Below, one piece after another: positions 46,040 to 62,695 of a DNA stretch of 64,000 nt; within the stretch, counting starts at the first letter, position 1, and each line of letters begins with the position of its first letter. The position numbers were made by a program, and so were the translations under genes. The notes beneath the pieces were generated by a model that was not told the DNA's origin, made no database searches, and worked only from the letters and a program-made list of their open reading frames with translations. The DNA comes from a virus. Its lineage: Duplodnaviria; Caudoviricetes. The DNA lies in the IMG/VR virus record IMGVR_UViG_3300012973_001074, positions 1 through 64,000 of that record, one strand, 5' to 3'.

Positions 46040-47044
46040 TCACGCCGCGAACACGAAGTCCAGGTACCGCATCGCGAGCGGCTGGTAGATCTTTACTCCG
46101 CCGCAGCGAGCGTGGCAGTTGTGGAGGAATTCGAAGACCTTCTGCTCGGGCGGCATGACCTCGAACTCCTGCGGAATGATCGCCTCGAGCACGTCGGGTG
46201 TCTTCCGGTACGAGATGGCGCGAGGCACGCCTCCGACGCCCGCCTTGTTGAGGCGGTGCCATGGTGCGATTGTCGTGATGTTCGGGTTGTTGCGGCGGAA
46301 GATCGTGAGGATCGACTCGCCCGTGAGCGCCGAGAACGGCGTCTGCTGGATGTAGCTGAAGTACCGGGTCGGCAGGAGGAGGGTGTCCGCCGCCCACTGA
46401 TTGTCGGAGTAGTTGCCGACTTCGGCCGCGAGGCGCGCGAGGTCAGCGAGGATGATGTCGGGGTCGAGCGGCGTCGTCGGCGGAGCGCCGGCGGCGGTGA
46501 GCCAGGCGCCTCCGCCCATGACGCCGAGCGCGGCGACGAAGGGGTTGTTCACGAGGCCGTTGAGGCCGACGTCCGGGAGCACGCCGTTCTCGTCGGCGAG
46601 CGAGCCGAACGCGAGGACCTCGTCGATGCCGCGCTCGATGAAGTCCGCGGCCGCGCGAGCTTTCGAGTCCGACAGCTGTACGCCGAGGCGCGCCGCTTCG
46701 CGTAGTTCGTTGATGTCCCAGCCGTAGGCGGCGCCGATCGGCGTCACCTTGCCGAGCACCTCCTCGGCCGCGACGTCGACGCGCGGGATGTCGTCGCTCT
46801 TGTACGTGATGAGCTTCGCCCGGCCGACGGGCTTCATGACCTTGTAGCTGTAGGTCGAAGCGCTCGCGGCGATGTCCGTCGCCTTCGGGGCAAACGTGCG
46901 CGCGAGCGTCGGCAGGAACGCGACTTCGTACATCTTCGCGCGCAGCTGCGTGAGCTCGCGCTCGAGGAACATCGTCTCGTTCGCGTCGAAGTGCTGCACG
47001 AGCGCTGCGCGCTGCAGACGCTTGTACTGGATCTCGTCGAGCAT
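46040..47044 (-). CDS. Major capsid protein (DUF2184-like)
   Basis: FLERELTQL...DIPRVD...GWDINEL...GLVNNP...ARCGGVKIYQPLA. Confidence 0.92.
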   Translation of the reverse strand: MLDEIQYKRLQRAALVQHFDANETMFLERELTQLRAKMYEVAFLPTLARTFAPKATDIAASASTYSYKVMKPVGRAKLITYKSDDIPRVDVAAEEVLGKVTPIGAAYGWDINELREAARLGVQLSDSKARAAADFIERGIDEVLAFGSLADENGVLPDVGLNGLVNNPFVAALGVMGGGAWLTAAGAPPTTPLDPDIILADLARLAAEVGNYSDNQWAADTLLLPTRYFSYIQQTPFSALTGESILTIFRRNNPNITTIAPWHRLNKAGVGGVPRAISYRKTPDVLEAIIPQEFEVMPPEQKVFEFLHNCHARCGGVKIYQPLAMRYLDFVFAA

Positions 47045-47229: not shown

Positions 47230-47718
47230 TTACGCGCCGTTGGGGCGGCCCGGGTAGTTGAGCTGCAGAACCGCGACGCCCGCGGCGCCGACGCCGCGAT
47301 AGACGCTGACGCCCGAGGGCTGCACCGCGCTTGCGTCGTCAGCGTCGTTGCGCCATCCGCCCTTCGTGCCCTCTCCTGCGAAGCGGACGAACGGAGTCGC
47401 CTGCGCGGCGATCGCCTGCTCCGTTGCGACCCAGACGCGGCCCTGCAGCATGACGGGCACGACGTCGCCCTGCTTGTGGCCCAGGCCGCTCGGACGCGTC
47501 GGGGTAGCGAGGGCGACGCCGCCCTCGCCATCGGTGACCTCCGCAGCGTCGTCGGCGAGCTCGCAGTAGCCGCCGCTCACGCGGACGTATGCACCGAAGG
47601 GAATGTCCTCCTGCGCGACGCAAGAGACCACGTCCTTCGGGCCCGTGTCGTAGATCAAGCCCGGGTAGCCGGCGCTCGGCTCCGCGGTGATCGCTGTCTG
47701 AACCACGTCGGCCATCAC
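47230..47718 (-). CDS. Head decoration/cement protein
   Basis: AGYPG...IPFG...VPVMLQGRVWV; between protease and capsid. Confidence 0.8.
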   Translation of the reverse strand: MMADVVQTAITAEPSAGYPGLIYDTGPKDVVSCVAQEDIPFGAYVRVSGGYCELADDAAEVTDGEGGVALATPTRPSGLGHKQGDVVPVMLQGRVWVATEQAIAAQATPFVRFAGEGTKGGWRNDADDASAVQPSGVSVYRGVGAAGVAVLQLNYPGRPNGA

Positions 47719-49841
47719 TTACCTCCGTTCATCTGCTGCTGGCCGGTTTGCCAGAGCGACGCCGCCTTCTGGTCGCGATTGCGGCGCGCTCGGCTGACCG
47801 GATCGTTGTCGTTGGGGGTGTCGAACGAGTCGAGGTTGTGCACCTCGCGGACGACTGCGCGACGAACGCCGTTGATGCCGTTCGCGTCGCGGACCTGCTC
47901 GATCATCGCGTCGTAGCGGCTGCGGACGTAATCGTCCGACTTGCCCTTGTCGTCGAAGTCGGGGTTCTTCTTCCGGATCGCGTAGAGCATGACCTCGCGA
48001 TCGCTCTTCGAGTCGAGCTTCTCGAAGGGGTTCTTCTTCTTCGTGACGGTCTTCTTCTTCTTCTTGCCGTCTTCGTCGACCTCTTCCTCCTCGACGACCT
48101 CCTCCTCCTCGTCTTCGTCGGCGGAGCCGAACCAGCGGGCGACCTCGGTGAGGAGGCGGACGCGCGAGCGGACCTCGGACTGCGTGCGCTTCTTGAGCTC
48201 GTCGGCGTCCTTGTCCTTCGCCTTCTGGGCGTCGGCCTTGAACTCGTCGAGCGACTGCTTCGCCGCATCGCGAGCGCCCTCGGCCTCGTCGGCGCGCTTC
48301 TTCTCGGCGCTGAGATCTGCAGAGAGCTTGTCGATCTTCGCCTTCGCGTCGTTGCGGACCTGATCGACCTCGCGCCGGTGCATGTCGTCGAGCTTGTCGA
48401 GATGCGCCTGCGAACCGACCTCGTACTCCCTGCCGTCGATGCGGATGACCTTCATCGTTTGCTCCTGTTCTTCGTCGTGGGACACGCCCCAAGGGGGCCC
48501 CTGGTTATCGAGGCGCAGTCCCACTTCGGGTCCGGCCCGACCTCGGTTCGGCGGACAGAGCGCCGCGTGGTTGTAACGGATGTCTCTCTGGATGCAGTCG
48601 AAGCGCTCACCCTCGTAGGTGCCGCTCGTCATCTCGAGGCGGCAGCGGTAGCCGCAGGAGATCTCGGAGCGATCGCCGGTCTCGATCGCGTCGAGCGTTT
48701 CGGCGTCCTGCACGATGAGGTCGCTCGCGATGAACTTGCCGTCCTGGCGGACGCGCGCGACGTGCCCGAGAGAGACCCTGCGCCACGTCTCCGGTGTGAC
48801 CAGGCCCGTGTGGTCTTTGATGTCGATGACGGGCGCGTGCTCGAGCGTCGCGAGCGAGTCGGCCTTGAAGACCTCTTCGGGGAGCCGGAGTTCGCGACGC
48901 TGTGTGCCGTCAGGGTTCACGTACGTGAGCACGCCGGTGCGCGTGAGGCGCGCCGGGACGCGTGCGCCGCCGACCTGCGTGCGATCGACCTTGCCGAGAC
49001 GTGAGCGATCGAGGCGGAGGACGAGCTCGCCGGAGTCGAAGCGACGCTGCTCGTCGGCGTCAGAGGTCCACCGGCCGTCTTCCTCACGGGGGACGTTCAG
49101 GTGGCCTTCGCCGCTTCCGCCAGAGCCGCCGGCGCCATTGCTCCTGGCCGCGGCGGTGTTTTCGTCGGCATCGGCACGCTGCTCGAGGGCAAGCCGCCGC
49201 TTGCGAGTCTGGTGCATTGCGAGCTCCCTTGCTGCTTCCGAGACGCGCCTGCGCATCTCCTCGTCCGTGGGCGACGCCGCTTCGTCAGCGGCGTCGAGGT
49301 CGTCCTCGTCGTCCTCGTCGTCCTCGTCGGGCTGCGCTTCTGGGTTCAGGAACGGCGTGCCCGCGTTCTCATCGAGCCCGATCGGAACGAAGGAGACCTC
49401 GACGAGGCGAGCAGCGGGCGAGGCTGCGCGCGTCGTCGCGGCGGGGTTGTCGACCTCGGCCTCGTCGTCCTCGGGCTCGTCCTCGTCCTCGGCGCTGTCG
49501 GCCGAGCCTTCTGGTCCGCCGTCGTAGCCGATCGATACGGAGCGGATGACGCCGTCCTTCACGCCCTGCCAGACCTGCTCGGCGAGCGGGTTGACGGCCT
49601 CGCGCGCGAACGTGACACGCATGCGCAGGCCTTCGGCGGAGGCCTCCACGTCGTTCGCGAGACCGATCGGGAGCTCGGCGGCGTCGTGTGCCCAGAGGAT
49701 GACTGGGTTCTTGAGGAAGCGCTCGAGCTCCCATTCGGTGATCTGCACGCCGTCGACGGGCTCGGGCGACGACGCGATGATCCATACCGAGCGCGTGTAC
49801 TCGTCGACCTTCGCGACGCGCGCGAGGAGGTTCTTGGGCAT
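47715..49841 (-). CDS. Prohead protease/scaffold with HK97-like protease domain, DUF2213 domain and coiled-coil scaffold
   Basis: KNPVILWAHD...PIG...RSVSIGY...LVEVSFVPI; then TRTGVLTY...RLPEEVF...EISCGY...QRDIRYNHAA....GRAG. Confidence 0.85.
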   Translation of the reverse strand: MPKNLLARVAKVDEYTRSVWIIASSPEPVDGVQITEWELERFLKNPVILWAHDAAELPIGLANDVEASAEGLRMRVTFAREAVNPLAEQVWQGVKDGVIRSVSIGYDGGPEGSADSAEDEDEPEDDEAEVDNPAATTRAASPAARLVEVSFVPIGLDENAGTPFLNPEAQPDEDDEDDEDDLDAADEAASPTDEEMRRRVSEAARELAMHQTRKRRLALEQRADADENTAAARSNGAGGSGGSGEGHLNVPREEDGRWTSDADEQRRFDSGELVLRLDRSRLGKVDRTQVGGARVPARLTRTGVLTYVNPDGTQRRELRLPEEVFKADSLATLEHAPVIDIKDHTGLVTPETWRRVSLGHVARVRQDGKFIASDLIVQDAETLDAIETGDRSEISCGYRCRLEMTSGTYEGERFDCIQRDIRYNHAALCPPNRGRAGPEVGLRLDNQGPPWGVSHDEEQEQTMKVIRIDGREYEVGSQAHLDKLDDMHRREVDQVRNDAKAKIDKLSADLSAEKKRADEAEGARDAAKQSLDEFKADAQKAKDKDADELKKRTQSEVRSRVRLLTEVARWFGSADEDEEEEVVEEEEVDEDGKKKKKTVTKKKNPFEKLDSKSDREVMLYAIRKKNPDFDDKGKSDDYVRSRYDAMIEQVRDANGINGVRRAVVREVHNLDSFDTPNDNDPVSRARRNRDQKAASLWQTGQQQMNGGK

Positions 49842-49855
49842 GCCTGACCTCGGAG

Positions 49856-51133
49856 TTAGGTGGCGGGCGGAACAAGCGGGCCGTTGGCGTAGAGGCGCAG
49901 GCTCGCGGTGACGGAGGACGCCGTCGCAGCAAGGAAGCCGCCGCCACCTGCGAAGACGTTCGCGGCCGCGCCGAGCCGGTGGCCGCCGTAGCGCCACGTT
50001 GCTCCCGCGTCGGGCGAAAAGACGATGTCTCCGAAGGCGCCCGCGGCTGCGCAGTAGAGCGCTCCGACCGTTCCGAGCGATCCGATCTCCACGCCGACTG
50101 CCCCGACTTCGGCGAAGCTCTCCCCCTGAGTGCTCGAACGGAGGACGCGAGAGACGCCGTTGCGCGACCACGCGCAGACGAACATGTCGAGCAGCTCGTC
50201 GTAGCGGAGCGAGAGCCCAGGCGGCGAGCCGCCTCCAATGAGGTGCTCGCCGCGCGGGGTCCAGGTCATCCCACCATCGTCGGAGGTCGCCCACCGGAGT
50301 GCGCCGGCGTTCGTGTTGGCGTGGAGCCAGACGAGGCGCCCCGATGCCGGATTGAGAGCGAGGAGGTTATCGGTGGAAGGCCCGCCGAACTCGGCTGGCG
50401 TAGTACGGGCGGTCCAGGCCGCAGCGTCAGGGCTCGTGAAGACCTTGGGCCCCGTCCCGCTGCCGTGAACCACGACCCATAGTGCGTGCACCGAGTCGTA
50501 ACGGACGGAGGGGCGATCCGCCACCACGCCCCCCGGCAGGACGGGTGCCGACCAGAGGTTGGTTGGGCTCCGCACATCGAGCGTGGCGGAGCCGTTGTTG
50601 GCGATAGCCACGAGCCCCGTCGGGGTGACGTCGATGTCGTGGCTGACGCGACCGCCAGCCGGAAGCGCGAGATCGGTCCACGCGCGCCCGAACGTTGCCG
50701 ACGAGCGTCCGGTGTTTGTCGCGCCGACGCCGAACCATGTGGAGAGCTCGGGCACGTACCGCAGGCGCCGATTGATCCCGTTGACCGTCACGGGCGCTCC
50801 GAAGTTGAGCGCTGGGAGGCTCCCCCAGGTGTGCATCCACTCCGCGCGCCGTGCGGCGAGCAAGGTCGTCATCTCGACCCTGTAGGCCGCGAGCTCGTCT
50901 TCGTCGTGGTTCTGGTCCTCGATGAGCGCGGAGAGGAGCGCGGCGAACTGACGGTCGAGCCAGTTGCGGTACTGGCCTCCGAACTGCCGCCCGGGACGCA
51001 TGCCTTGGCGAAGCTCGGCGAGCGACGGCTGGATCTTGACCGGGCTGTCGTCGACGTCGTCGCCGGCGGCCGCGAAGTTTATGTCCGTCGCGATCTCGAG
51101 CGCCTGCGACGAGTAGATTGGCTTGTCGCTCAT
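49856..51133 (-). CDS. Fibre-like protein with BNR/Asp-box beta-propeller, located in the head module
   Basis: N-terminal GMRPG...QYRNWL; repeated S.D.G.TW motifs. Confidence 0.65.
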   Translation of the reverse strand: MSDKPIYSSQALEIATDINFAAAGDDVDDSPVKIQPSLAELRQGMRPGRQFGGQYRNWLDRQFAALLSALIEDQNHDEDELAAYRVEMTTLLAARRAEWMHTWGSLPALNFGAPVTVNGINRRLRYVPELSTWFGVGATNTGRSSATFGRAWTDLALPAGGRVSHDIDVTPTGLVAIANNGSATLDVRSPTNLWSAPVLPGGVVADRPSVRYDSVHALWVVVHGSGTGPKVFTSPDAAAWTARTTPAEFGGPSTDNLLALNPASGRLVWLHANTNAGALRWATSDDGGMTWTPRGEHLIGGGSPPGLSLRYDELLDMFVCAWSRNGVSRVLRSSTQGESFAEVGAVGVEIGSLGTVGALYCAAAGAFGDIVFSPDAGATWRYGGHRLGAAANVFAGGGGFLAATASSVTASLRLYANGPLVPPAT

Positions 51134-51144
51134 TCGTTCGCGCC

Positions 51145-51529
51145 TCAGAAGGGCGTGATCGAGACGCCGCGTGTGGCGACCTCGTCACGGATGTTCGACC
51201 AGATCGTGTGGCAGCCTCGCGCCATCGCGAGCTGACCTGGTGAGAGCGGGACCTTCGGAATCGGGCCCCAGTACAGGACCTCGCAGGGCGCGCCTGTCGC
51301 GTGGCTCGCGAGCCACTTGCGGAGCGCGCGGACGACGGCGGGCGACGCCTTCGATGATCCAGGGCCCAGGTTCTTCGAGCCAGGTGGCGACCTCGGACGA
51401 GGCCGCCGACCATGCGTATGCGCCGATGAGATCGTCCGTGTGGCGCACGCCGAGGTTGAGGCCTTTGCCGAGCTCCTCGGCGAAGGACGTCTTGCCCGTG
51501 CGCGGGCCGCCGGCGACGAGGATGCGCAT
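51145..51529 (-). pseudogene. P-loop nucleotide kinase-like gene split by a frameshift
   Basis: GGPRTGKT...HTDD...WIIEGVA in one frame continues as VVRALRKWL... in another; tandem 4-bp duplication at 51337-51344. Confidence 0.7.
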
Positions 51530-51614
51530 GGTTTCGTGCGGATGCGAGCGCGTCCGCGGAGTCGTCGGGCCCCGGTGTTGTCAGTTGGCAATTCGGTCGG
51601 CTAGCGTGGATCGA

Positions 51615-52238
51615 ATGAGAATTGTCACTCTCGTCGGATTCGTCGCTCTGGTCGGTGCGTGCTCCAGGGGGAACGCCATTGGTCCCGATGACCGGCACCC
51701 GGACGGGCAGCAGAACCAGGACCCTTCGAAGGACGATCCCTCCGACCCTTCGAAGCCGACCCCGTCAGACCCTTCGAAAGCCGGGACGAGCGGTTCGCGG
51801 TTGAAGGCGCGCTACTACGAGGGCGAGGACGGCTCGAAGCAGTTCATCGGCTGGTGGGACTCGCAGCGGCAGGAAGACTGTGTGATGGTGCCAGCCAAGG
51901 ATGGGAAGCTGCGCTGCCTACCGGCGGCAAATGTCGCCATCACTGGCTACGCAGACGCGAACTGCAGCGTGCCTGTCGTGACGGTCCGCAAGGGCTGCGC
52001 TGCGCCGTCGGCGGCAATCGTTATGGAAACGTCAGGGAACGTATCCTGCAGCCTGGGATACGCGTACGCCGCGTACGGTGTAGACCCTGCGAAGTTCACC
52101 GGGACGTTGTACGGAGGCTCGCCTTCGACCTGTAAGGTCACAACGGGCGAACCGTACGCCGAAACCATGGATTTTCACCGACTCAGCTCGGAAATTCCTC
52201 CGACCTCGTTCGTAGCGGTGAACCAGACGCACGACTAG
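51615..52238 (+). CDS. Myxobacterial-type Cys-rich lipoprotein (moron)
   Basis: Lipobox LVGAC, DPSK repeats, SGSRLKARY...WDSQR.EDC...DGKLRCLP...YADANCS. Confidence 0.75.
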   Translation: MRIVTLVGFVALVGACSRGNAIGPDDRHPDGQQNQDPSKDDPSDPSKPTPSDPSKAGTSGSRLKARYYEGEDGSKQFIGWWDSQRQEDCVMVPAKDGKLRCLPAANVAITGYADANCSVPVVTVRKGCAAPSAAIVMETSGNVSCSLGYAYAAYGVDPAKFTGTLYGGSPSTCKVTTGEPYAETMDFHRLSSEIPPTSFVAVNQTHD

Positions 52239-53137
52239 TTGAGGCCGACTTCTTCGAGCTCGGGGAGGACGGGGTAGGCGATGCATCGGCAGTTGATGGG
52301 CTCGCCCGGGTGGCCCTCTTCGGGGTGACCGTCGGCCCACGTGAAGCGCGCGCCTTCGAGGTCCTTGTGCTCGGGCCGCACGCGCTCGTCGTTGCTCGTC
52401 GTCCAGATGTACTCATCGATGCCCGCAGCGGTTTGGCGCTCGCGGGTGATGTTCGCGTTGAGCGTGAGGATCTGGTCCCGCGCGAGCGCCTCGGCGCGCG
52501 ACAGCGTGACATCGTCGAGCTGGCGCGCGATCTCCTTGGCGAGCGTCTGCGCCGTGTGGCCTCGGCCCTCGCGAAGGATCCTCTCGATCTTCGCGAGCTG
52601 GTCCTTCTGCATGCCCGTGATGCGGGCGACGTTGTCCTTCCGCCAGCCGTCGATGAGCCACTTGAGGTGGGGCTCCTTCTCGACGTTGATCCCGAGGCGG
52701 GAGAACTCGCGCTGCGAGTGCTGCACGACGCGCTTGGCTGCGCGGTTCGATGTTCGTGAGAAGCCGGGTTCGTTGAAGGCATCGAAGCCTGCGAACTCCA
52801 GGTCCTCGAGAAGCTCGTCGAGCTCCGAGTCCTCGAGCAGCTCCAGGTCGAGATCCTCGAGCTCGTCACCCGGTGCATCGAGCCGCTCGGCAGCGTCGGT
52901 CTTCGTGACGCGGCGCTCAGCGGCGGCGGCGAGTTTTGGAAAGACGACCTTCCCGACGGCTCGTGCGAAGGCGGCCGCGATGCGGCGAAGCTCCAGCACC
53001 ATCATCAGCTCGGCCCCGCGCGGCAGTTGAGGTGAGCGGGTGCGGCGGACGGCGTTGCTGGGAGGGCGTTGGGTCCTCTTCGGGAGCCTCGGTCGGCGAG
53101 GCCTTCGCGGCGGATGGCGCAGTGCTGCGCGAGCCAT
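52235..53137 (-). CDS. Minor head protein MuF/SPP1 gp7, short form
   Basis: RAEALARDQ...YIWTTSNDERVRPEH...HPGEPINCRC. Confidence 0.92.
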   Translation of the reverse strand: MARAALRHPPRRPRRPRLPKRTQRPPSNAVRRTRSPQLPRGAELMMVLELRRIAAAFARAVGKVVFPKLAAAAERRVTKTDAAERLDAPGDELEDLDLELLEDSELDELLEDLEFAGFDAFNEPGFSRTSNRAAKRVVQHSQREFSRLGINVEKEPHLKWLIDGWRKDNVARITGMQKDQLAKIERILREGRGHTAQTLAKEIARQLDDVTLSRAEALARDQILTLNANITRERQTAAGIDEYIWTTSNDERVRPEHKDLEGARFTWADGHPEEGHPGEPINCRCIAYPVLPELEEVGLN

Positions 53138-53638
53138 TCATGCCTGCGTCGGCTCGTCGTCGTTGTTCGCTGCAGGCTCGTCGGTGTTTGCTGCAGGTTC
53201 GTCGCCTGGCGGCGCGGGGAGCGCTTCCGGCGGCGGCGGCAGAGGAGGGATCGGCGGCGGCTCGGGCTCTTCGGGCTCGCTCGGCTGTTCGGGCTGTTCG
53301 GGCTCAGGGTCGGGATGCTGGGCAAGCATCTCGTCGTCCACGCCTTCGAGCATGATCAGCGCGAGATTGTCGACCGGGTCATACGTCAGCGTGACCATGC
53401 CCGACGGTGGCTCGATCCCGCGCGCGCGCAGCACATCGACCAAGCGGGCAGCGTCGGCGAACGCGGCGGGCGAAACGAGCGTGTTCAAGAGCACGAACGG
53501 CTCGGTCGATTCGTCGCCTTCGGCGCTGCCCGTCGTGTCGAACGCGTTGCGACGCAGCCATCGCACGGTCTCACGAATGCCGGGATCGAGCGCGTCATAG
53601 TCGATCGGCGGCAATCCGCCGGGGCTTGCAGGCATCAT
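53138..53638 (-). CDS. hypothetical protein with acidic Pro-rich tail
   Basis: GGGAG RBS; LDPGIRETVRWL...FDTTGS.EG motif. Confidence 0.6.
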   Translation of the reverse strand: MMPASPGGLPPIDYDALDPGIRETVRWLRRNAFDTTGSAEGDESTEPFVLLNTLVSPAAFADAARLVDVLRARGIEPPSGMVTLTYDPVDNLALIMLEGVDDEMLAQHPDPEPEQPEQPSEPEEPEPPPIPPLPPPPEALPAPPGDEPAANTDEPAANNDDEPTQA

Positions 53639-53674
53639 GGATCGTGCTCCCTTCGAGGTCGGCGCTGACTCCCA

Positions 53675-53696
53675 ATTGAACGTCGATTGAATGTCG
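53675..53696. promoter_or_regulatory. Tandem 11-bp repeat in a divergent promoter region
   Basis: ATTGAACGTCG ATTGAATGTCG in an AT-rich gap between divergent genes. Confidence 0.5.
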
Positions 53697-53765
53697 AAAA
53701 ACGAAAGAAAGTTCGATGGTTGACTGTGTCTGGCCTCGTCGGCCATCATCTGCGTCACGACGAAG

Positions 53766-54299
53766 ATGACGAGCAAGACGAAGACGAAGACGAGGCCGAA
53801 GACGAAGACGAAGGCGAAGGCGAAGGCGAAGGACCCGTTCGACGACTTCCCGGCGCGCCTCAAGGCGGCGCGAGAGCGGTGCGGGTATGGAGTGAACGAG
53901 CTAGACCGGCTCGTGGGCGTCTCCGTCGGGCAGACCTCGCGGCTCGAGCTCGGTGCGCGGCCGCGCGTGAGCATAGAGACCGTCGCGAAGTTCGCGCGCG
54001 TTCTCGATGTCACCATCGACTGGCTGTGGAACGGACCGGTCCCTTCGGGAGGAGTGAAGGTCCTGCAGCGGGGGGCTCGGAGGGAGCCGCGTTACGTGCC
54101 CTCGACCCTGCGGCGAGCCATCGGGAGGCCTCTTGAGGAAGTCGCCGAGAAGGCGGGTATCGGACTGACCAATGTGGCGCGCGTCGAGGCCGGGGAGAAC
54201 GCGACCCTCGCGGACCTCGCGGGCTTCGCCAAGGGTATCGACATGAAGCTTGAAGTCGCCTTCGTCGCAGGCGAGCGGCGCTACCGCATCGACGTGTGA
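53766..54299 (+). CDS. Double-HTH XRE-family regulator
   Basis: Two HTH_3-like units (RLKAARERCG...SRLELG; LEEVAEKAGIG...ARVEAG); N-terminal (KT/KA)n repeat. Confidence 0.8.
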   Translation: MTSKTKTKTRPKTKTKAKAKAKDPFDDFPARLKAARERCGYGVNELDRLVGVSVGQTSRLELGARPRVSIETVAKFARVLDVTIDWLWNGPVPSGGVKVLQRGARREPRYVPSTLRRAIGRPLEEVAEKAGIGLTNVARVEAGENATLADLAGFAKGIDMKLEVAFVAGERRYRIDV

Positions 54300-54516
54300 G
54301 CCGGCTCTTGCGCGACCGCGATGGCGTTCGTAGGTTGCGACGCCTCGGAGCCCACACGCAAACTGTCCTCGGTAGGCGAGGGCTGCTTTAGGGAAGCAGA
54401 TGCGCCGGTGCGACTCCGGCCTCGCGCTCCGAGCACTCGGTCCCGCTGGCAGACGCTGGCGGGGCCGTCGCGTGTCGGGGTTGAGTCCGCCTGGAATTCG
54501 CGATGGACTTGCGGCA

Positions 54517-55167
54517 ATGGAGTCCGCCGTCATCACTGCTCTCGCTGCGATCGGCGGCGTGGTCCTTGGTGCATACCTGACACGGAAGAACGCCTTGGCC
54601 GTCGCCGAACTGTCGGCGAAGACGGCACGGGAGCAGGAGCTTGAGCGCGAACGGAGAGCGCTCGCCCGCGACCGGCTGGAGCGGCAGTTCGAAGCAAGGC
54701 TCGCCGTGCAGCGATTCGTTCTGAACAACTTGAACGGCCCTGGTTGGTCGGACCCGGGCGTCCGAGAGGAGGCAGCTCAGATTGCGGGACGGGTAGCATC
54801 CGCCTTCACTGCGCCACGCTTCGCAGCGTTCCTCTACGAGGTGCTCTTCTACGAAGTCGCGCTCCCGATCCGTCCTGGAATGTTCCAGAAGGCGCCACGA
54901 ACGATGACGGAGAGCCAGCTCTTGGCGCTCTGGAACCGAAGCGACAAGGAGATGTTGCGCGTCATCGAAGAGACGGTGCGCGTGTCCGGCTATGGCGAGC
55001 TGGAGATCCCGAAGGTTCCTTCGAAAGATGAGGCAGTCAAGGAAGCGCCGCGGACGCGAATCGCGTCCCTGTCCGCGGCGTCCGCGAGCGAGCCAACTGC
55101 AGCAGACCCGGAGGCTTCGGAGGAGGCGGCAGCGCTATCGGACTCGCGGCGCGCTCGGGGCGGCTGA
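54517..55167 (+). CDS. Membrane-anchored hypothetical protein
   Basis: N-terminal TM (AVITALAAIGGVVLGAYL) plus coiled coil. Confidence 0.7.
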   Translation: MESAVITALAAIGGVVLGAYLTRKNALAVAELSAKTAREQELERERRALARDRLERQFEARLAVQRFVLNNLNGPGWSDPGVREEAAQIAGRVASAFTAPRFAAFLYEVLFYEVALPIRPGMFQKAPRTMTESQLLALWNRSDKEMLRVIEETVRVSGYGELEIPKVPSKDEAVKEAPRTRIASLSAASASEPTAADPEASEEAAALSDSRRARGG

Positions 55168-55306
55168 GCCGGGCTGTCATGCTGGCGCTTCGCTTTCGGA
55201 CGCGGTGTCTGAAACCGAAAGCGGCCCAGAAAGCCCGTCATTTCGCCGTGTAGCGCGACCGGTCGCCGCGCGGTACACTTCTAGTGGACCCGGAAGGAGG
55301 GTCTGG

Positions 55307-55498
55307 ATGAATGCGAAGTCCCCGAAGACGGTAGAGGCACCGAAGCCAGGCAAGTCGAGCCTGGACATGTTCAACGAGGCCTACGCGAAAGCGATGGCCG
55401 AGGAAGCCGAGGAGACCGAGAACCTCCCGAAGGCCTTCACGCCGGAGGAGAGCCTGGTCGAGGTCGTGGACGACGACGACAAGCACTTCGGCGTCTAG
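55307..55498 (+). CDS. Small acidic protein convergent with the zeta-kinase gene
   Basis: AGGAGG RBS; 63 aa; stop overlaps the stop of 55495..57447. Confidence 0.65.
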   Translation: MNAKSPKTVEAPKPGKSSLDMFNEAYAKAMAEEAEETENLPKAFTPEESLVEVVDDDDKHFGV

Positions 55499-57447
55499 CC
55501 GCCGCGTTTCCTCTGCAGCTTGACCTTGTGGCCGTTGGCCGCGTCGTAGACCGTGAGGTTCGGCGCGGCCGCGTGAATTTTGTCGCGGGCCTTTTCGATC
55601 TTCGCGTACGTGCCGCGGATGACGTGCTCGGGCACGTAGCGCCCTGAGCCCTCGGCGCGCGAGGCGGCGCGCCGGACGCCCTCGTCCGGGTTCAGGTCAG
55701 GGTGGTGCACGTGGACGTCGTAGCCCTTCGCTTCGAGGTGGTTCATCAGCGCGATGAACTTGTCGGCGTTGCCGCCCGTGCCGTCGATGATCACGTGGTG
55801 CCCGCGGTCGACGGCGCGGTCCCGGATCTGCTTGGCGACGGCGCTCGACTCCTCGTGCACCTGCGCGGCCGCGCCTCGGAACGTCGGGCCGGCGCTCGGG
55901 TCCTTCGGAACGCTCGCCTTGTACTCGGGGAGCTGGGACTTCACTTCGTCCGGATCGACGTGGACGAAGCGCGACGTGTCGAGACCGTGTTTCGCGAGCT
56001 TGCCGAGCACGACGCCTTTGCCGCTCGCCGGTCCGCCCATCGTGAGGATCGCGATGGGCTTCTCGCCGAGCTCGCCGGCGGTCTTCTTGCCATCGAAGGC
56101 GGGCGCGATGAGCTCGCGTTCGTGAAAGGCGGCGCGCTCGGGCGAGGGCTTGCCGCCTTCGTCCGGGTGCTTGTCGTAGTGGTCCTTCCAGGTCTCGTTG
56201 CTCTTGCCCATCAGCTGGCCGGACCACGAGCCGTCGGGGTTCTCGGTGCCGACCCAGGTGCGACCGGGCTTGAGCGGTTCGTCCTTCGCCGGGGCGGGCT
56301 GCTTCTGCGCGCTCGGCGGGACCTTGTCGTGCGTGCTCGAGAAGTCCCCCGCGGGCCCGCCGCTGCCGCCTCTACCACCGACCTTGTGCAGGCCCGGGCC
56401 GGGCGGTCCCTCGCGGTCGCTGCCGCCGCTGCCGGAGCCGATGCTCGTCCAGCGTCCCTCCTCGTCGCGCGGAACGCCTTCCCACTCGTCCGCGTCCGTG
56501 CGCTCTTCACCCGCTTCGAGACCGAATTGCGCGGCGAGCTGCCTCCACGCCCATTCGAGCTGCTTGTCGGTGAGCTTCGGGTTCTCGCGCTTCGCCTCGG
56601 CGAGCCACTGACCCTTGTACTTGCGTGGGTTCGCTGCGAGCTCGTCGAGGAACTCGTCGCGCGCACGCTTTTCCGTGTCGCTCACGCCCGGCTTCGCATC
56701 GGTGCGCGTCTTTTCGAGGCGCATCGTGACGTAGTCGGGGTGATCGAACCGGTCGTAGTCCCAGTCGGTCGCCGCGTACTCAGAGTTGAACGCATCGCGC
56801 GTCGCCTCCTTGAAGCCGACCTTCTCGTAGAGCTTGTTGAGGGTCGGCCCGTAGCACTCGACGTAGTTGACGCCGTAGTTGTCGACGACGTGACGAAGGA
56901 GCTCGACGCCGATGCCCTTCTGGCCACCCTGGTTGAAGAGCGCTGTCGCCTCGATGCGCCCGTCACCGTGGTCTTTGACCGCGACGCCGGCCTTGCCGTC
57001 GGGGCTCATGACGCAGCTCATCTTCCCCAGGTCTTCGACCCCATAGTGCGAGACGTGATGCTTGAACGGGGAGTCCTTGAACGCAGAGTCGAAGGCCGCC
57101 TTGAACTTGTCGGCCTTCTCGCGCACGGGCGAGACCGCGGCGCGCGCGCCCTCGGCGCTCTTCCAGTCGCCCGAGCTCGAGCCGCCGCCCTTGCCGCCGG
57201 GACGGTGCACACCGATGCCCGCGTCGGTCCCCGCTGAGGTGTCGCCGCCGCTGCTCGTCCAGAGGCCCTTCTCGTCGCGCGGGACCTCCTCCCAGCCTTC
57301 GGCGTCCGTGCGTTTCTGCTGCTTGTCGCGAGAGCCGGTGAGCCCTTCCTGCTCCTTCCTGGCCGCCGCGCCGGGCTCGGGCTCGTCGCCGTCGAAGACG
57401 AAGCCGCCGAGCTCGGACGAGATGAACCGGTCCGCGCGCGTCGTCAT
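55495..57447 (-). CDS. Polyvalent protein: GNAT-like acetyltransferase, small helical domain, zeta-toxin-like P-loop kinase
   Basis: KGIGVELL...LNKLYEKVGF (GNAT); GGPASGKG, VDPDEVK, VHEESS, IIDGTG, RA...GRYVP (zeta). Confidence 0.85.
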   Translation of the reverse strand: MTTRADRFISSELGGFVFDGDEPEPGAAARKEQEGLTGSRDKQQKRTDAEGWEEVPRDEKGLWTSSGGDTSAGTDAGIGVHRPGGKGGGSSSGDWKSAEGARAAVSPVREKADKFKAAFDSAFKDSPFKHHVSHYGVEDLGKMSCVMSPDGKAGVAVKDHGDGRIEATALFNQGGQKGIGVELLRHVVDNYGVNYVECYGPTLNKLYEKVGFKEATRDAFNSEYAATDWDYDRFDHPDYVTMRLEKTRTDAKPGVSDTEKRARDEFLDELAANPRKYKGQWLAEAKRENPKLTDKQLEWAWRQLAAQFGLEAGEERTDADEWEGVPRDEEGRWTSIGSGSGGSDREGPPGPGLHKVGGRGGSGGPAGDFSSTHDKVPPSAQKQPAPAKDEPLKPGRTWVGTENPDGSWSGQLMGKSNETWKDHYDKHPDEGGKPSPERAAFHERELIAPAFDGKKTAGELGEKPIAILTMGGPASGKGVVLGKLAKHGLDTSRFVHVDPDEVKSQLPEYKASVPKDPSAGPTFRGAAAQVHEESSAVAKQIRDRAVDRGHHVIIDGTGGNADKFIALMNHLEAKGYDVHVHHPDLNPDEGVRRAASRAEGSGRYVPEHVIRGTYAKIEKARDKIHAAAPNLTVYDAANGHKVKLQRKRGG

Positions 57448-60365
57448 TGGACCTCCTCGGCATCGATGAGAAGACGCGGCGGGCGACCGATCTCGAGGTC
57501 GACCTGCGCGTAGCTTTCGCGCTTCACCGACCTGATCCGGAACCGTGTTCCCTTCGGGAGGAGGACCTCGGCTTCGTTCTGGTACTCGGACGCGCCGGAG
57601 ACCGTGACGCCGCTCTTGTGCTGCACGCGAATCACGGCATCGAATCCGTGGGGCAGGACCGCTGCGGTGGCGCCGCGATCGAGGTCCTCCTTTTCGAGGC
57701 TCGCGAACTGGGTCGCGACGTCTCGGTGATCGGAGAAGCTCGTCATCGAGTCGAGCGTGAACGTCTGCGAGTTGAGCATCTTCTCGACGACGCGCGGCGG
57801 GACCTGCTTGAGACCGCGGTAGACGGTCCCTGGCGTTGGGGGCACGTCGCGGAAGATGCCGTTCAGGTGCTCGATCGCCTGCTGCGCGCGCTCGGTGTGG
57901 TCCGCCGCGGACGAGGCCCCGTGCAGGAACTGCTTAGCGAGCTCCTCGGGCGTGCGGACGTGCTGGTCGCCATAGCGATCGGGCTGGGAGCGATACAGCG
58001 TCCCGGCTTCGTTCAGCGTGTAGCCGGACTCGGCGATCCGCTGGTCGAGATGCGCCTGCGTCGCGCGCGTGACCTCTTCGGGATCCGCTCCCGATTCGAG
58101 CTTGCGGATCGAAGTGTCGTAGCCCTTCGTGTACTGCGAGAGCGCATCGTAGTGCTCATCGCGGAGCTTGCTCGCGACGGCCTCCGCAGCGTCGAGGTGA
58201 GCGCGCTCGTTGAACGTGTTGCGCGTGTCTTCCTCGGTTGCGGCCTGCGAGCGGATGACGCGCGCGAGGGCCGCTCTCTCGCTCGCTCGCTCTGCAATCG
58301 GAGGCGGCTCGCCATTCTTGAAGAGGTGCTCTTCGTCGAAGTCTGCGAGCGCCTTCGCCTGCTCGCGCGACAGGCCGCGTGACTCGAGGCGATCGATTCG
58401 CTCGGCGACGTCGCCTGATACGCCCTCGCTCTCGACGATGCTGCTGATGCGCGCGCTCTTGTCGCCAGACCGAGGCTCAGAGCTCGAGTCACCGTCCTTC
58501 GGCGTGAACCGGCCCCCATCGGGCTCGCCAGCCGGCACGCGTTCGACGTTCGCCTCGTCCCAGTCGTCGGTGCGGACCGCGTCGTCGAGGAAGCGGATCT
58601 CGGTCTTGCCGCCGTGTCCGTGGATCTCGCGGACCTCGTCGAGCGAGTCGAAGAGCGTCGTCGAGCGGTGCTTCGTGAGCCAGCGCATGGCGACGGTGCC
58701 GTCCTCGAAGACGGCTCCGTGAGCGACGACGCCGGTACCGGAGACGCCGGTCTCGTCCTCGATGCGGTAGAGCTCGAAGAGGCGCGGACCGCTCGTCGCG
58801 TCCGTGCGCACGCGCGCGCGCTCGTAGTCGTCTTGGGTCGGCTTCGGCTTCTGCGCGACGCCGGGCGGAAGCTGCGGGGGACCTCCCTGCTGGGGGCCTC
58901 CCTGCTGCGGGGGACCTCCCTGCGGGGGCGGACCTCCCATGCCCGGAGGGGCGCCCGGTCCGCCCATCTCCGTCGGGTCGGGCGGGTTCTCCATTTGCTC
59001 GAGGTCGGCCTCGAGCACGGCCTGGCGCGCCTTGATGGCGTCGTCGGAGAGCCGGACCTCGTCCTCGAAGCCGCCGGCGATGCCGAAGCGCGCGATGGCG
59101 ACCTCCTCGGGCAGCAGGACCTGGGCCTGGATGTACGTCGAGTCCCGCTGCGCGATCGCGCTCTGGCGCTGCGCCTGCACGAGCGGTGTCTCGGTCCAGA
59201 GCGGGGTGAACTTGACCGTGAGCGACTTTGGCCGCGTGCGCGTCGGCGACGCCTTCGACTGCAGCCAGATGACGAGCAGGCGCCGGATCTTCGGCGCGAG
59301 CATCGTCGTCTGCTCGGCGCGGATGCGGTCGTAGAACCAGCGGAAGTCGCTCTCGCCCGTGGCGTTCATGCCGGCGGGCGACTGGCCCATCAGGATGGTG
59401 ACGGGGATCTGCACCGCCGCGGCGAGGCGGAGCATGAACTTTTCGAGCGTCGCGGGGATCTCGCTGAACGAGACGGAGTGCCGCGTGAACTCCTCCTTCG
59501 CGTCAGCATCGACGACGATGGCGCGCATCACCGAGCGGTAGAGCTCGATGATCTGCAGGCGCGCCTGGAGCTTCGCCTGCTCGTTGGCGCCGATCATCTC
59601 GGCGAGACCGGTCATCTTGAAGATGGCCTGGTTGCCGTCGGTGAGCAGCGTCTCGACGGCCGCCCATCCGGTGTTGAACGAGCGCAGCACGTTGTACGCG
59701 CGCTGCAGGACGGACATGTCCCAGCCGAAGAGCTGCTGCCGCTCGCGGATGCCCGTCGATGCTCCGCGGAAGAGGATGAGCCGCGACTCGTGGACAAGCA
59801 TCGTCGGCGACGACTTGGCCCCGGCCGCGGTGACGGCGTACGTCTTGGGCGTGCCGAACTTCGGGCCCGGTTCCTCGTAGAAGTCGACGGGCCAGAGAAG
59901 TCGGCGATCGAGCGGGTAGAGCCACTCTACGTCGTTCGCGCGCGCGGGCTTGAGCGGCTTCCAGGCCTCCTGGCCGTCGTCGGCACCGATGAGGACGGCG
60001 CCGCCGCCGTAGCAGCGGCCCCACTTGGACCCTTCTTGGAAGTTGCCGCGGACGTCGAGCGCGTCGAACTTCTCCTGGATGACCTCGTCGAGCTTCGGGT
60101 CGCCGGTCTCGATCGAGAACGGCTCGCGAAGCATCTCCTGCGGGACGACGTCGACCATGCGCGCCGCCATGTCGTCTGCGTGATAGAGCGCGGAGAGCTC
60201 GACATCCTCGAGCATCCGGTTCGGTAGGACGTAGCCGTAGGTCGTCTTGTCGCGCGCGGTGCCGAAGCCGGTGACCTCGTTGATCCACGCGTCGAAGCGC
60301 GACGTAGCGCGTGCGCGGAAGGCGCCGAGCGCCTCGCGCATCTTGATCGACGCGGAGTTCAGCAT
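57444..60365 (-). CDS. Portal protein (DUF1073-like) fused to a small domain and a C-terminal ADP-ribosyltransferase
   Basis: Portal: AARMVD...WGRCYGGG...VHESRLI...IPVTILMGQSPAGMNATGESD; ART: VYRG, TSFS, QNEAEVLLPKGTRFRI. Confidence 0.9.
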   Translation of the reverse strand: MLNSASIKMREALGAFRARATSRFDAWINEVTGFGTARDKTTYGYVLPNRMLEDVELSALYHADDMAARMVDVVPQEMLREPFSIETGDPKLDEVIQEKFDALDVRGNFQEGSKWGRCYGGGAVLIGADDGQEAWKPLKPARANDVEWLYPLDRRLLWPVDFYEEPGPKFGTPKTYAVTAAGAKSSPTMLVHESRLILFRGASTGIRERQQLFGWDMSVLQRAYNVLRSFNTGWAAVETLLTDGNQAIFKMTGLAEMIGANEQAKLQARLQIIELYRSVMRAIVVDADAKEEFTRHSVSFSEIPATLEKFMLRLAAAVQIPVTILMGQSPAGMNATGESDFRWFYDRIRAEQTTMLAPKIRRLLVIWLQSKASPTRTRPKSLTVKFTPLWTETPLVQAQRQSAIAQRDSTYIQAQVLLPEEVAIARFGIAGGFEDEVRLSDDAIKARQAVLEADLEQMENPPDPTEMGGPGAPPGMGGPPPQGGPPQQGGPQQGGPPQLPPGVAQKPKPTQDDYERARVRTDATSGPRLFELYRIEDETGVSGTGVVAHGAVFEDGTVAMRWLTKHRSTTLFDSLDEVREIHGHGGKTEIRFLDDAVRTDDWDEANVERVPAGEPDGGRFTPKDGDSSSEPRSGDKSARISSIVESEGVSGDVAERIDRLESRGLSREQAKALADFDEEHLFKNGEPPPIAERASERAALARVIRSQAATEEDTRNTFNERAHLDAAEAVASKLRDEHYDALSQYTKGYDTSIRKLESGADPEEVTRATQAHLDQRIAESGYTLNEAGTLYRSQPDRYGDQHVRTPEELAKQFLHGASSAADHTERAQQAIEHLNGIFRDVPPTPGTVYRGLKQVPPRVVEKMLNSQTFTLDSMTSFSDHRDVATQFASLEKEDLDRGATAAVLPHGFDAVIRVQHKSGVTVSGASEYQNEAEVLLPKGTRFRIRSVKRESYAQVDLEIGRPPRLLIDAEEVQ

Positions 60366-60442: not shown

Positions 60443-60754
60443 CTATTTCGGCGCGTTCAGCGGGCGGCGGCGCATCCGCTCGATGCGTCGCCGCGTCTGT
60501 TCGAGTCCCCGCGAGATAGCCCTCCGCCGATCGTCAGGGCTGAGAACGCGAAAGGAGGCAGCACCGGTCGGCGGAGGAGTCTCAGAGATGCGCCGCGTCG
60601 GCGGTGGCTCGTCGTCGTCGCGGCAGCCGACGAGAGCGCGGAAGCCTGGGGTGCACGGGTCGCGCGCGTCGCACGAGAGCGCGAAGCCTGCGCCGCTTTC
60701 CGGCCCGCACGTGCAGTCCTCGCCCATGTCGCAAGTGAGCGCGTGGACCTTCAC
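60443..60754 (-). CDS. hypothetical protein
   Basis: GTGA overlap with the terminase stop. Confidence 0.45.
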   Translation of the reverse strand: MKVHALTCDMGEDCTCGPESGAGFALSCDARDPCTPGFRALVGCRDDDEPPPTRRISETPPPTGAASFRVLSPDDRRRAISRGLEQTRRRIERMRRRPLNAPK

Positions 60755-62139
60755 GTGCCGGTCCTCTTGCCCAGCGCTTCGACCATCGGGTTGACCGTCG
60801 AGCAGGCATGCAGCGCCAGGGCGAGGGCCCAGGCTCGGTCGCCGTGCCCTTCGCTCGTGCGCGGCGTCTCGTACTTGACGTTGCCTGCGCTCGTAATGAC
60901 GCGCTTGATCGACGCGAGCTCCTTGCGGAGAAGCTCGGCGGTCTTCGGCTCGGCGAACGGAAGGACCTTGTCCTCGGCGGGGAGCCGGACGTTCTTCGCC
61001 GCGGTCGCCGCGTACAGGCCCGTCGCGAGCTCCTCTTTCATGTTCGGAGTGAAGTCGACGAGCTCGACGCGCGGGCGACGGTGCGGGACGTCGATCCTCT
61101 CCGAGTGCTTCCTCTTGATGCGTTCGGCCGGGAAGTAGCCGAGGCCCGTAGAGTCGATGCAGAGGCGCTTGAGGTGGTACTTCTCGAAGGCGCGCGAGAC
61201 CATGGCCTCGAGCCCCTCGGAGTCGGTCCGCTTCATCGTCTCGACGTGGACGACGTAGCGGACGCCTCTCACGAGACGGACGACGAGCAGGACGGACAGG
61301 TCGACCTCGCGGCCGATGTCGAGGCCTGCGTAGTAGTCGCCGTACGCGAGGCCCGGAACGTCGTAGCTGACGCTGCAGGCCTTGATCTGGTCGGTCGGGA
61401 TGTACTGCAGCTCGTTGTCGAGGAACGAGCAGCGGAACATCTGCGCGAACAGGCGCGGGTCGCCCTTCGCCAGCTTCCAGCACTTGCGGAGATCGACTGG
61501 GTAGCCCTGCGAGATCGCGAGCTCGATCGGAATCGAGTGCGGGGCCCATCCGCTGTTCGGCTCGAGGGCCTTTTCCCAGAGGACATGGAAGTCGTTCCCG
61601 ATGCCGTTCGGCGTCGAGACGACCCGCATCTTGTAGCCGAGGAGCGTGACGGGCGCGGCCGCGTCCCAGACCTTGGCGGCGTGCTCCTGGTAGGCGAACT
61701 CGTCGAGGAAGACGTTGCCGGTGAAGCCGCGGCCACCGGAGGAGGGGAGCGCGAGGATCCTTCCGCCGCTCGCGAAGGTCAGCTCGTTCGAGTTGTCCTT
61801 GCGCCCGAAGCGCGCCATCTCGGAGCCCAGGGCCTGCAGCACCTGCGCGTGCTTGCGCGCCTTGTCGAGGACCTCGACGGCCTCGCGGTCGCCGACGGAG
61901 ATGACCGTGGTGAGCTCGCCGTGGAAGGCGCCCCAGAGAACGCCGACGGCGCTCGTCGTGTGCGAGGTGCCGATCTGGCGAGACTTGTTCGCGATCGCCG
62001 CGTCGTTCTGCTCGAACAGCCAGTCGCGCTGGAACGGGTAGAAGCTGCCGGCCCAGGCGGCGAGCGCCGAGAACTCACTCTCGGGGAGCGCTTGCTGGTA
62101 CTTCGCCAGCGCCTGCGCCGCTTGACTCGGAAGCCTCAT
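60751..62139 (-). CDS. terL: Terminase large subunit (Mu gp28-like)
   Basis: NKSRQIGTS Walker A, VFLDEFA Walker B, STPNG, GLDIG, IDSTGLG, HGDRAWALAL. Confidence 0.95.
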   Translation of the reverse strand: MRLPSQAAQALAKYQQALPESEFSALAAWAGSFYPFQRDWLFEQNDAAIANKSRQIGTSHTTSAVGVLWGAFHGELTTVISVGDREAVEVLDKARKHAQVLQALGSEMARFGRKDNSNELTFASGGRILALPSSGGRGFTGNVFLDEFAYQEHAAKVWDAAAPVTLLGYKMRVVSTPNGIGNDFHVLWEKALEPNSGWAPHSIPIELAISQGYPVDLRKCWKLAKGDPRLFAQMFRCSFLDNELQYIPTDQIKACSVSYDVPGLAYGDYYAGLDIGREVDLSVLLVVRLVRGVRYVVHVETMKRTDSEGLEAMVSRAFEKYHLKRLCIDSTGLGYFPAERIKRKHSERIDVPHRRPRVELVDFTPNMKEELATGLYAATAAKNVRLPAEDKVLPFAEPKTAELLRKELASIKRVITSAGNVKYETPRTSEGHGDRAWALALALHACSTVNPMVEALGKRTGT

Positions 62140-62695
62140 CCGGTGGTCCCTGCTGCTCGGGCGGCGGCGGCGGCGGTTGCTCGAGCCACGCGGGATCGAT
62201 GGGCGCCGGCGGGACCGTGACCTCGCCGACGGCGGGGCCTCGCGCGCCGTGCTCGCCGAAGAGCTCCCGCACGAGGCGGGCGGCCTCGACGACCGTGGGC
62301 GCGTCGCCCATGAGCGGGCCGCCGTTTGCGCCGGTGAGCTGCTGCTGTTTCGGCGCGTCGAGCCCGAGGTACGCGGAGATCCGCGTCTGGATGGCGAGCA
62401 TCCGGTCGATGGCGGCGAGCTCGCCACGCTGAGCGCGCTGGTAGAGACCGCCGCGCAGGACCGCTTCGAGCCTCGCGACCTCGATCCAGCGCTGCTCGTC
62501 GACCGTCTCGTTCGCCTCCTGCCGGAGTCGCTCGACTGCCTTGCGGAACACCTTGAAGGGACCGGACGCGTTCGCGTAGCCGAGCTCCTTCGCGATCATC
62601 GACCACGTGAGCCCGGCGCGCCGGCGCTGGATGATCGACTCTTCGAGCTCGAGGTTCGCGACCTCGCCCGCGTCACGCTTCGACGTGTTGCCCAT
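62075..62695 (-). CDS. Putative terminase small subunit
   Basis: N-terminal HTH (GLTWSMIAKELGY), LGLDAP, LTGANGGP; directly upstream of terL. Confidence 0.75.
   Translation of the reverse strand: MGNTSKRDAGEVANLELEESIIQRRRAGLTWSMIAKELGYANASGPFKVFRKAVERLRQEANETVDEQRWIEVARLEAVLRGGLYQRAQRGELAAIDRMLAIQTRISAYLGLDAPKQQQLTGANGGPLMGDAPTVVEAARLVRELFGEHGARGPAVGEVTVPPAPIDPAWLEQPPPPPPEQQGPPDEASESSGAGAGEVPASAPRE

Follow-up and report, generated by a model that had tools for sequence, protein, structure and literature searches.

A conserved peptide at the head of effector modules in a phage genome, a candidate mark for head-internal cargo

In phage T4 the internal proteins IPI-III and Alt carry a capsid targeting sequence, which is removed by the prohead protease gp21 with the cutting rule L-x-E. 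To our knowledge, the choice of proteins for the capsid is understood in few models only, such as T4 and P1, and the signals are not conserved there. The subject here is a short peptide, referred to as the tag, in a 64,000-nucleotide stretch of Caudoviricetes DNA (IMG/VR record IMGVR_UViG_3300012973_001074, positions 1 to 64,000). This stretch, the window, makes up the first 64 kb of one phage contig, which is 115,531 bp long and has 68% G+C. The tag stands at domain borders in three genes of a head module, behind an R-T-D or R-A-D tripeptide that looks like a prohead-protease site.

Like the T4 targeting sequence, the tag is a short N-terminal peptide on unrelated proteins and is coupled to a putative prohead-protease site, with an acidic P1 residue in both (L-x-E in T4, R-x-D here). 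In neither system do the cargo genes need to sit in the head cluster. The order of the elements is however different. The T4 signal precedes the cut and is removed, whereas here the cut precedes the tag, so that the tag would stay on the cargo. Second, the T4 signals are not conserved in sequence, whereas the core of the tag is nearly invariant across phages of many hosts.

Bacterial polymorphic toxins reportedly have demarcation motifs, said to have been described by Zhang et al. in 2012: VENN in CdiA and P-x-x-x-x-D-P-x-G-L in Rhs. These are likewise short conserved motifs that show where an exchangeable C-terminal module begins, and the Rhs motif is also a cleavage point. They occur once per secreted bacterial toxin, whereas the tag is repeated from module to module, is found also at true N-termini, and belongs to phage virion-associated proteins.

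The phage-type polyvalent proteins combine several unrelated effector domains in one polypeptide beside virion genes, as is the case here, and were predicted to be packaged and processed, with zincin-like metallopeptidase domains proposed as the processing hub (Iyer, Burroughs, Anand, de Souza, Aravind 2017, PMC5512222). The tagged proteins share their domain vocabulary: ADP-ribosyltransferase (ART), zeta-like kinase, NUDIX, InPase, 2H, MuF and portal fusions (PMC5512222). Three proteins of the window are multi-domain in this manner, P0003 (portal, phrog_7499 domain and ART), P0002 (GNAT-like domain and zeta kinase) and P0001 (S78 protease and PF09979 scaffold domain). None of the three has a Pfam match to a zincin-like metallopeptidase, and their borders carry an S78-type site and the tag instead of a metallopeptidase hub. 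The strings PRD, GRF and GRW do not occur in the text of the polyvalent-protein paper (PMC5512222). The class, packaged polyvalent effectors with a targeting peptide and a prohead-protease site, is already known; the conserved tag and the R-x-D rule proposed here are not.

Delivery via a head protein is known from the MuF polymorphic toxins of temperate phages, with toxin or enzyme domains that are variable (Jamet et al. 2017, PMC5576092). MuF is a Pfam partner of the tag as well, in 7 of 64 tagged proteins, and in two large tagged proteins the tag directly follows the C-R-C motif that ends the MuF domain. Here, in contrast, MuF is a separate gene with no toxin or other extra domain, and the tagged cargo is on the portal, on a protein of its own and before the scaffold.

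The tag and its family

The strict pattern VPR[DE][DE].G.WTS matches exactly three times when the window is translated in six frames, each time on the minus strand. Two are in P0002, before the GNAT-like and the zeta kinase modules, and the third is in the protease-scaffold protein. A looser copy, V-P-A-G-E-P-D-G-G-R-F-T, heads the ART module of the portal protein P0003 (Table 1). The shorter pattern G[RKL][WF]T[SP] is found at these four sites only in all six frames of the whole genome. A sequence-only reading of this DNA had claimed a tag before the cargo domains of three genes, each behind RTD or RAD and mostly flanked by Gly/Ser linkers, and all of this holds. R-T-D or R-A-D precedes the four copies, with 7 residues from the D of the site to the P of the tag in the GNAT and zeta copies, 10 in the ART copy and 26 in the scaffold copy. 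Gly/Ser-rich linkers flank three of the four, the ART copy being followed by an Asp/Ser-rich, Gly-poor stretch. Two details are corrected. The scaffold copy had been placed inside the protease but lies between the S78 domain and the PF09979 scaffold domain. The module before the zeta kinase, named GNAT, matches Acetyltransf_7 at a sub-threshold 16.4 bits (Pfam cut-off 27) and has no meaningful match to solved structures by sequence comparison; it is called GNAT-like here.

The two copies in the zeta gene are similar in DNA, as had been noted, with 56/72 identical nucleotides (78%) over the span from R-T-D to G-G and 31/36 in the core. The duplicated cassette that was drawn from this explains, as a recent duplication, those two copies at most. 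The scaffold copy has only 22/36 nucleotides identical to either of them, with different codons at 5/8 and 8/9 of the shared residues. It keeps the peptide with mostly different codons, so the tag is under selection at the protein level. The ART copy belongs to a subtype, P-A-G...G-G-(R/Q)-F, that also follows R-T-D in the related protein P0285 and is present in P0027 and P0029.

A profile of 11 copies (A2) was searched against 1.84 billion representative proteins. It matched 274 protein clusters at E<=1e-3 and 24 at E<=1e-10, in proteins of up to 5313 residues with up to 15 matched stretches each, and many of the matches are very large polyvalent proteins of phages. The best 150 hits hold 499 core copies in 149 proteins, where about 3 are expected after shuffling. 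Throughout these copies P, R and G are invariant and the aromatic position is always W or F; D is conserved in 90%, R/K in 89% and E/D in 87%. The layout is an aromatic-acidic flank ending in His or Gln, the core P-R-D-E-x-G-(R/K)-(W/F)-T-S, and then a Gly run. The median spacing between copies is 250 residues, about one domain, and the first copy is within 60 residues of the N-terminus in 80 of the 149 proteins. The three strict copies of the window fit this profile fully except for Val at position -1 in place of His or Gln, a residue seen in 1% of family copies. The peptide of this phage is a local variant of a widespread header.

The domains that accompany the tag are varied. Besides MuF, the 64 tag-bearing proteins have Pfam matches to ART (12), zeta (6), GNAT (4), PF09979 (3), S78 (1) and portal (1). 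Further modules between tags are topoisomerase IB, NUDIX, InPase, 2H phosphoesterase, C39-like peptidase, S78_2 protease and many unknown ones; the ARTs are of the ART-PolyVal and exoenzyme types. A tagged protein of 3673 residues is encoded between Mu-type portal, MuF and lambda-E-type capsid genes, so the tag is not bound to one head-protein family. A degenerate DNA pattern for the peptide retrieved five IMG/VR contigs, with the tag three times in a 1714-residue ART+NUDIX protein beside a portal-MuF fusion gene, and before a PF09979 domain adjoining a capsid gene. A complete 104-kb phage (G001) is syntenic with the phage of the window and has the tag on genes after the portal. There each of three enzymes (the ART, an unknown one and the zeta kinase) has a gene of its own, apart from that of the portal, and opens with the same leader and tag; the ART has the same looser subtype as here. 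The proposed link to head modules and variable enzymes, and the plug-and-play character of the modules, are borne out by these proteins. Among cultured phages, the tag stands before an extra C-terminal portal domain in the Burkholderia phages vB_E436, phiE131 and phiE058, the latter two of B. thailandensis, and in the Faecalibacterium phage FP_Brigit.

With the 46-residue tag region as the sole query, a word-indexed protein search returned nothing, tblastn of a six-tag protein against cultured phages gave domain hits only, and no model in Pfam, NCBIfam or PHROGs covers the tag. Literature searches with motif spellings and on packaged polyvalent proteins found no description of it. The contexts of two family members, P0019 and P0009, are short contigs and uninformative.

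The module N-terminus and the R-T/A-D site

The proteins most similar to the zeta module, with 53-64% identity, stand alone and are 360-430 residues long. Twelve of the 14 closest start with Met-Ala-(x), an aromatic-acidic flank, the tag and a Gly run, and none of these homologues has an R-T/A-D site after the tag. In the alignment, R-T-D followed by A-D-E-W in this phage lines up with Met followed by A-E-F-D-E in the homologues. A cut after R-T-D would, by this alignment, recreate the N-terminus of the stand-alone proteins. The sequence-only reading had put the tag at or near the new N-terminus after cleavage, and the zeta junction, which matches the start of the 12 stand-alone homologues residue for residue, agrees with it.

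The start of the header changes from lineage to lineage. P0285 has three modules headed by R-T-D, flank and tag, one of them of the looser subtype, and about 18 tags of an unrelated 77-kb contig come straight after V-x-K. Identity over the ten residues that precede the core is 0.43 within proteins and 0.19 between proteins, while for the core it is 0.74 and 0.64. The flank is protein-specific and the core is alike everywhere, which points to a header of two parts, a universal peptide behind a lineage-specific start (Met or a local protease site). For the zeta module, an AlphaFold2 model from 15 aligned sequences has a pLDDT (predicted local distance difference test) of ~95 in the kinase; in the 86-residue leader it is below 50 at residues 1-21 and 29-86, and R22/W28 form a two-residue bridge. 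A low-confidence leader next to a well-scored kinase marks the tag as a short linear motif within a disordered region. Modelled in this way, the tag is not part of the enzyme fold.

The R-T/A-D tripeptide is a separate, lineage-specific element, and most likely the place where the S78 prohead protease of this phage cuts, behind the Asp. R-T-D-[AD] occurs six times in the ~25,000 residues of crude gene calls for the genome, and five of the six are in P0002 and P0003, at domain borders. Among the 106 protease-scaffold relatives having the upstream region, R-[TA]-D-[ASD] is found 10-17 residues before the scaffold core in 48 (background 0.07 per such interval), and the broader basic-x-Asp pattern at the same junction in 85. 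R-T-D-A is the consensus of this junction in a 40-sequence alignment. This consensus, together with the likeness of the basic-x-acidic site to the L-x-E rule of T4 gp21, is what points to an S78 site. The rule proposed for this one clade of S78 prohead proteases is basic-x-Asp, then a small residue.

Related sites are present in neighboring proteins. The K-T-D-A of the MuF protein corresponds in position to R-A-D-D at residue 77 of the MuF protein in a related locus, L016, where a portal-NUDIX fusion has R-T-D-A before the NUDIX domain and R-T-D plus the tag before the last domain. The catalytic residues of the protease, His52 and Ser103, are invariant in an alignment of 40 relatives. When a complex of the S78 domain (alignment of 40) and a peptide of R-T-D plus tag (alignment of 11) was predicted, the score was 0.00, which counts neither way for binding.

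Two further observations concern the protease-scaffold proteins. The C-terminal half of the scaffold has two more conserved basic-x-Asp-Ala motifs in the alignment consensus, K-M-D-A and R-L-D-A, which suggests a stepwise trimming of the scaffold. A 1155-residue relative (L018, the contig of P0156, 1394-4861) has two extra modules between protease and scaffold, each ending in a Gly run and a tag variant that ends R-(F/W)-D. Here it may be the upstream fragment that retains the tag.

Possible roles of the tag

The likeliest role of the tag is that of a portable mark for head-internal cargo modules, a reading that is given an even chance of being right. A module header would have two parts, of which each copy would be the universal one. 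The lineage-specific part would come first, here R-T/A-D as the site of the phage's own S78 prohead protease, and would be followed by the ~20-residue disordered peptide common to very different phages. Once cut behind R-T-D, the released enzyme would have the tag at its free N-terminus. The tag would then let unrelated enzymes be handled as head cargo, brought into the procapsid and/or held ready for release with the DNA, and the modules would be free to fuse to portal, MuF or scaffold, to be strung into polyproteins, or to be separate genes. The reading is suggested by the unrelated enzymes sharing only this N-terminal peptide, which is found behind portals as well and in front of scaffold, protease and MuF modules. 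What the sequences show is the motif with its family and positions, and the consensus at the protease-scaffold junction; cleavage at R-T-D, packaging and any binding partner of the tag are inferred. DNA binding, one of the functions offered by the sequence-only reading, is unlikely and was rejected, as the tag peptide and its flank are acidic.

A bolder form of the cargo-mark reading is held only tentatively. Here the tag would be a universal address label: some 20 residues at a free N-terminus would suffice to load any protein into proheads and deliver it with the DNA, would be recognized by a conserved feature of head assembly or ejection across the phages of many bacterial phyla, and would be paired with the protease site of each lineage.

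Several points weigh against a cargo mark. A loading signal is redundant on modules that are already tethered to portal or scaffold, and one signal per polyprotein would do, yet each module retains its own tag. Some R-T-D-flanked modules have no tag, namely the phrog_7499 domain, the spacer after the GNAT-like module and the NUDIX domain of L016. At the protease-scaffold junction the tag is present in only 7 of the 106 relatives, and phage PB1 has none. Finally, two stand-alone tagged zeta genes (L022 10001-11293 and L023 10001-11140, on phage contigs of 120 kb and 55 kb) lie outside a head module among dozens of small, early-type genes, one of them near a ribonucleotide reductase gene, with no recognizable head gene within 10 kb. 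The cargo genes of T4 are dispersed too.

A different role, considered rather unlikely, is that of a processing element that docks the prohead protease or forms a second cutting site and has no role on the released module. The tag always adjoins the lineage-specific site, it is repeated at each polyprotein border, and its R-D-E resembles the basic-x-acidic pattern of the site. In the 7 of 106 relatives, moreover, a variant with the ending G-R-(W/F)-D-(G/A) stands in the register of R-T-D-A in its stead, and the two are never both present within 45 residues. However, the stand-alone homologues carry the tag directly after Met, where there is nothing for it to be cut from, and R-T-D junctions without a tag are equally well conserved. 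Use of the tag itself as an S78 cutting site via R-D-E was ranked low, since the following residue (core position +4, the would-be P1') is the least conserved of the core.

Alternatively the tag could act after assembly, as an N-terminal leader into the portal or tail channel at ejection or as a peptide recognized by a conserved host factor. A free N-terminal position in a long disordered Gly-rich leader would suit this role, as would the tagged genes outside head modules, and a core conserved while portal, capsid and protease families differ speaks for a conserved partner. Such a role is nonetheless improbable, for the tag also heads scaffold, protease and MuF modules, which act in assembly, and no candidate partner is known.

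There is very little room for the view that the tag is a mere recombination joint for cassette exchange, without a function of the peptide, after the manner of the polymorphic-toxin motifs. Its location at the borders of swappable modules and the 78% DNA identity of the zeta-gene copies are what a joint would produce, but the scaffold copy keeps the peptide by different codons, P, R and G do not vary even among distant phages that differ greatly in composition, and the tag is retained at the N-terminus of single-domain proteins. Chance resemblance or a meaningless local duplication, which a short motif with two copies similar in DNA might bring to mind, is refuted by the counts, the four sites in the genome and the 499 family copies against ~3 expected.

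Gene setting and wider meaning

Table 1. Features of the tagged head module, in window coordinates
Feature	Position	Strand	Remark
ParB-like gene and TerL	60751-62427 (TerL)	minus	
P0003 (973 residues)	57444..60365	minus	portal (Phage_portal_3), small phrog_7499 domain, C-terminal ART
R-T-D, P0003 residues 520-522	58800..58808	minus	before phrog_7499 domain; no tag follows
R-T-D, P0003 residues 598-600	58566..58574	minus	directly before ART header
Looser tag	58503..58538	minus	heads ART module of P0003
P0002 (650 residues)	55495..57447	minus	GNAT-like module and zeta-toxin-type kinase; start overlaps portal stop
R-T-D, P0002 residues 46-48	57304..57312	minus	before tag copy 1
Tag copy 1 (strict)	57253..57285	minus	heads GNAT-like module of P0002
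R-T-D, P0002 residues 248-250	56698..56706	minus	end of GNAT-like module; no tag follows
R-T-D, P0002 residues 316-318	56494..56502	minus	before tag copy 2
Tag copy 2 (strict)	56443..56475	minus	heads zeta kinase module of P0002
MuF-type head morphogenesis protein	52235..53137	minus	PHROG 324
K-T-D-A site, MuF residue 79	52892-52903	minus	
P0096 (708 residues; P0001 from Met152)	47715..49841	minus	S78 prohead protease and Pa193-gp24-like scaffold
R-A-D, P0001 residues 373-375	49170..49178	minus	between protease and scaffold
Tag copy 3 (strict, different codons)	49062..49094	minus	14 residues before scaffold-domain core
Major capsid protein	46040..47044	minus	PHROG 264; no R-T/A-D site, no tag

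The order of the head genes, TerL, portal, MuF, protease-scaffold, decoration and capsid on one strand, gives the tagged proteins a late, virion context. The portal protein P0003 scores 242 bits with Phage_portal_3 and, for a cut-off of 23.4, 24.6-28.5 bits with ADPrib_exo_Tox; its PHROG matches are 146, 7499 and 802/832. P0002 matches Zeta_toxin at 94.6 bits. In P0096 the scaffold domain (DUF2213/PF09979) scores 118.4 bits (cut-off 22) and Peptidase_S78 20.1 bits, just under the 21-bit threshold; many relatives match PF04586. PF09979 is now named after gp24 of Pa193; cryo-EM showed a fragment of this protein bound on the inside of the capsid vertices, and it was interpreted as a scaffold (PMC11456595). 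The PF09979 gene precedes the decoration-like gene and the major capsid gene, an order shared with the relatives L016 and L018. The structural genes resemble those of Pbunavirus-type phages, and relatives match Pfam families named for E217, Pa193 and Pam3. Cultured phages yielded no close relative by megablast with the head region, and a locus search with the portal fusion as query found no related loci.

The phrog_7499 domain of P0003 (~75 residues, 523-597; 58575-58799, minus) lies between two R-T-D sites. Streptomyces phages have it as a small gene of its own in 128 records, and such free genes are present also in mycobacteriophages (Dori, Sejanus), Bacillus phages and the haloarchaeal sphaerolipoviruses SH1, PH1 and HHIV-2. 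A phrog_7499 match that reaches into the tag in SH1 and the Streptomyces phage Warpy was set aside, as it overruns the ends of small annotated genes.

Other genes are interspersed in the module. Two plus-strand genes (53766-54299 and 54400-55167) break its minus-strand run between the zeta gene and MuF. The product of the first resembles a double helix-turn-helix regulator, and the pair may serve the zeta or ART enzymes as partners in immunity or regulation. A 425-residue gene (49856-51133, minus) of repeat-rich, beta-propeller-like appearance lies between MuF and the protease-scaffold gene and has no PHROG match, no tag and no R-T-D site. A small P-loop, kinase-like open reading frame (ORF; 51185-51529, minus) overlaps an opposite-strand ORF (51171-52238, plus), which is lipoprotein-like with a Pro/Asp/Ser-rich leader. 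Upstream of TerL are an RNase E-like ORF (phrog_645; 62075-62695, minus) that overlaps the long TerL frame, and an ORF for a ParB-like nuclease or methyltransferase-associated protein (63326-63961, minus).

If the tag is indeed a mark for head cargo, the choice of capsid cargo would become directly testable through one nearly invariant peptide that hundreds of unrelated enzyme modules have in common. The peptide would also be a simple route to spot injected anti-defence and host-takeover enzymes in metagenomes, and a means to load proteins into phage particles.

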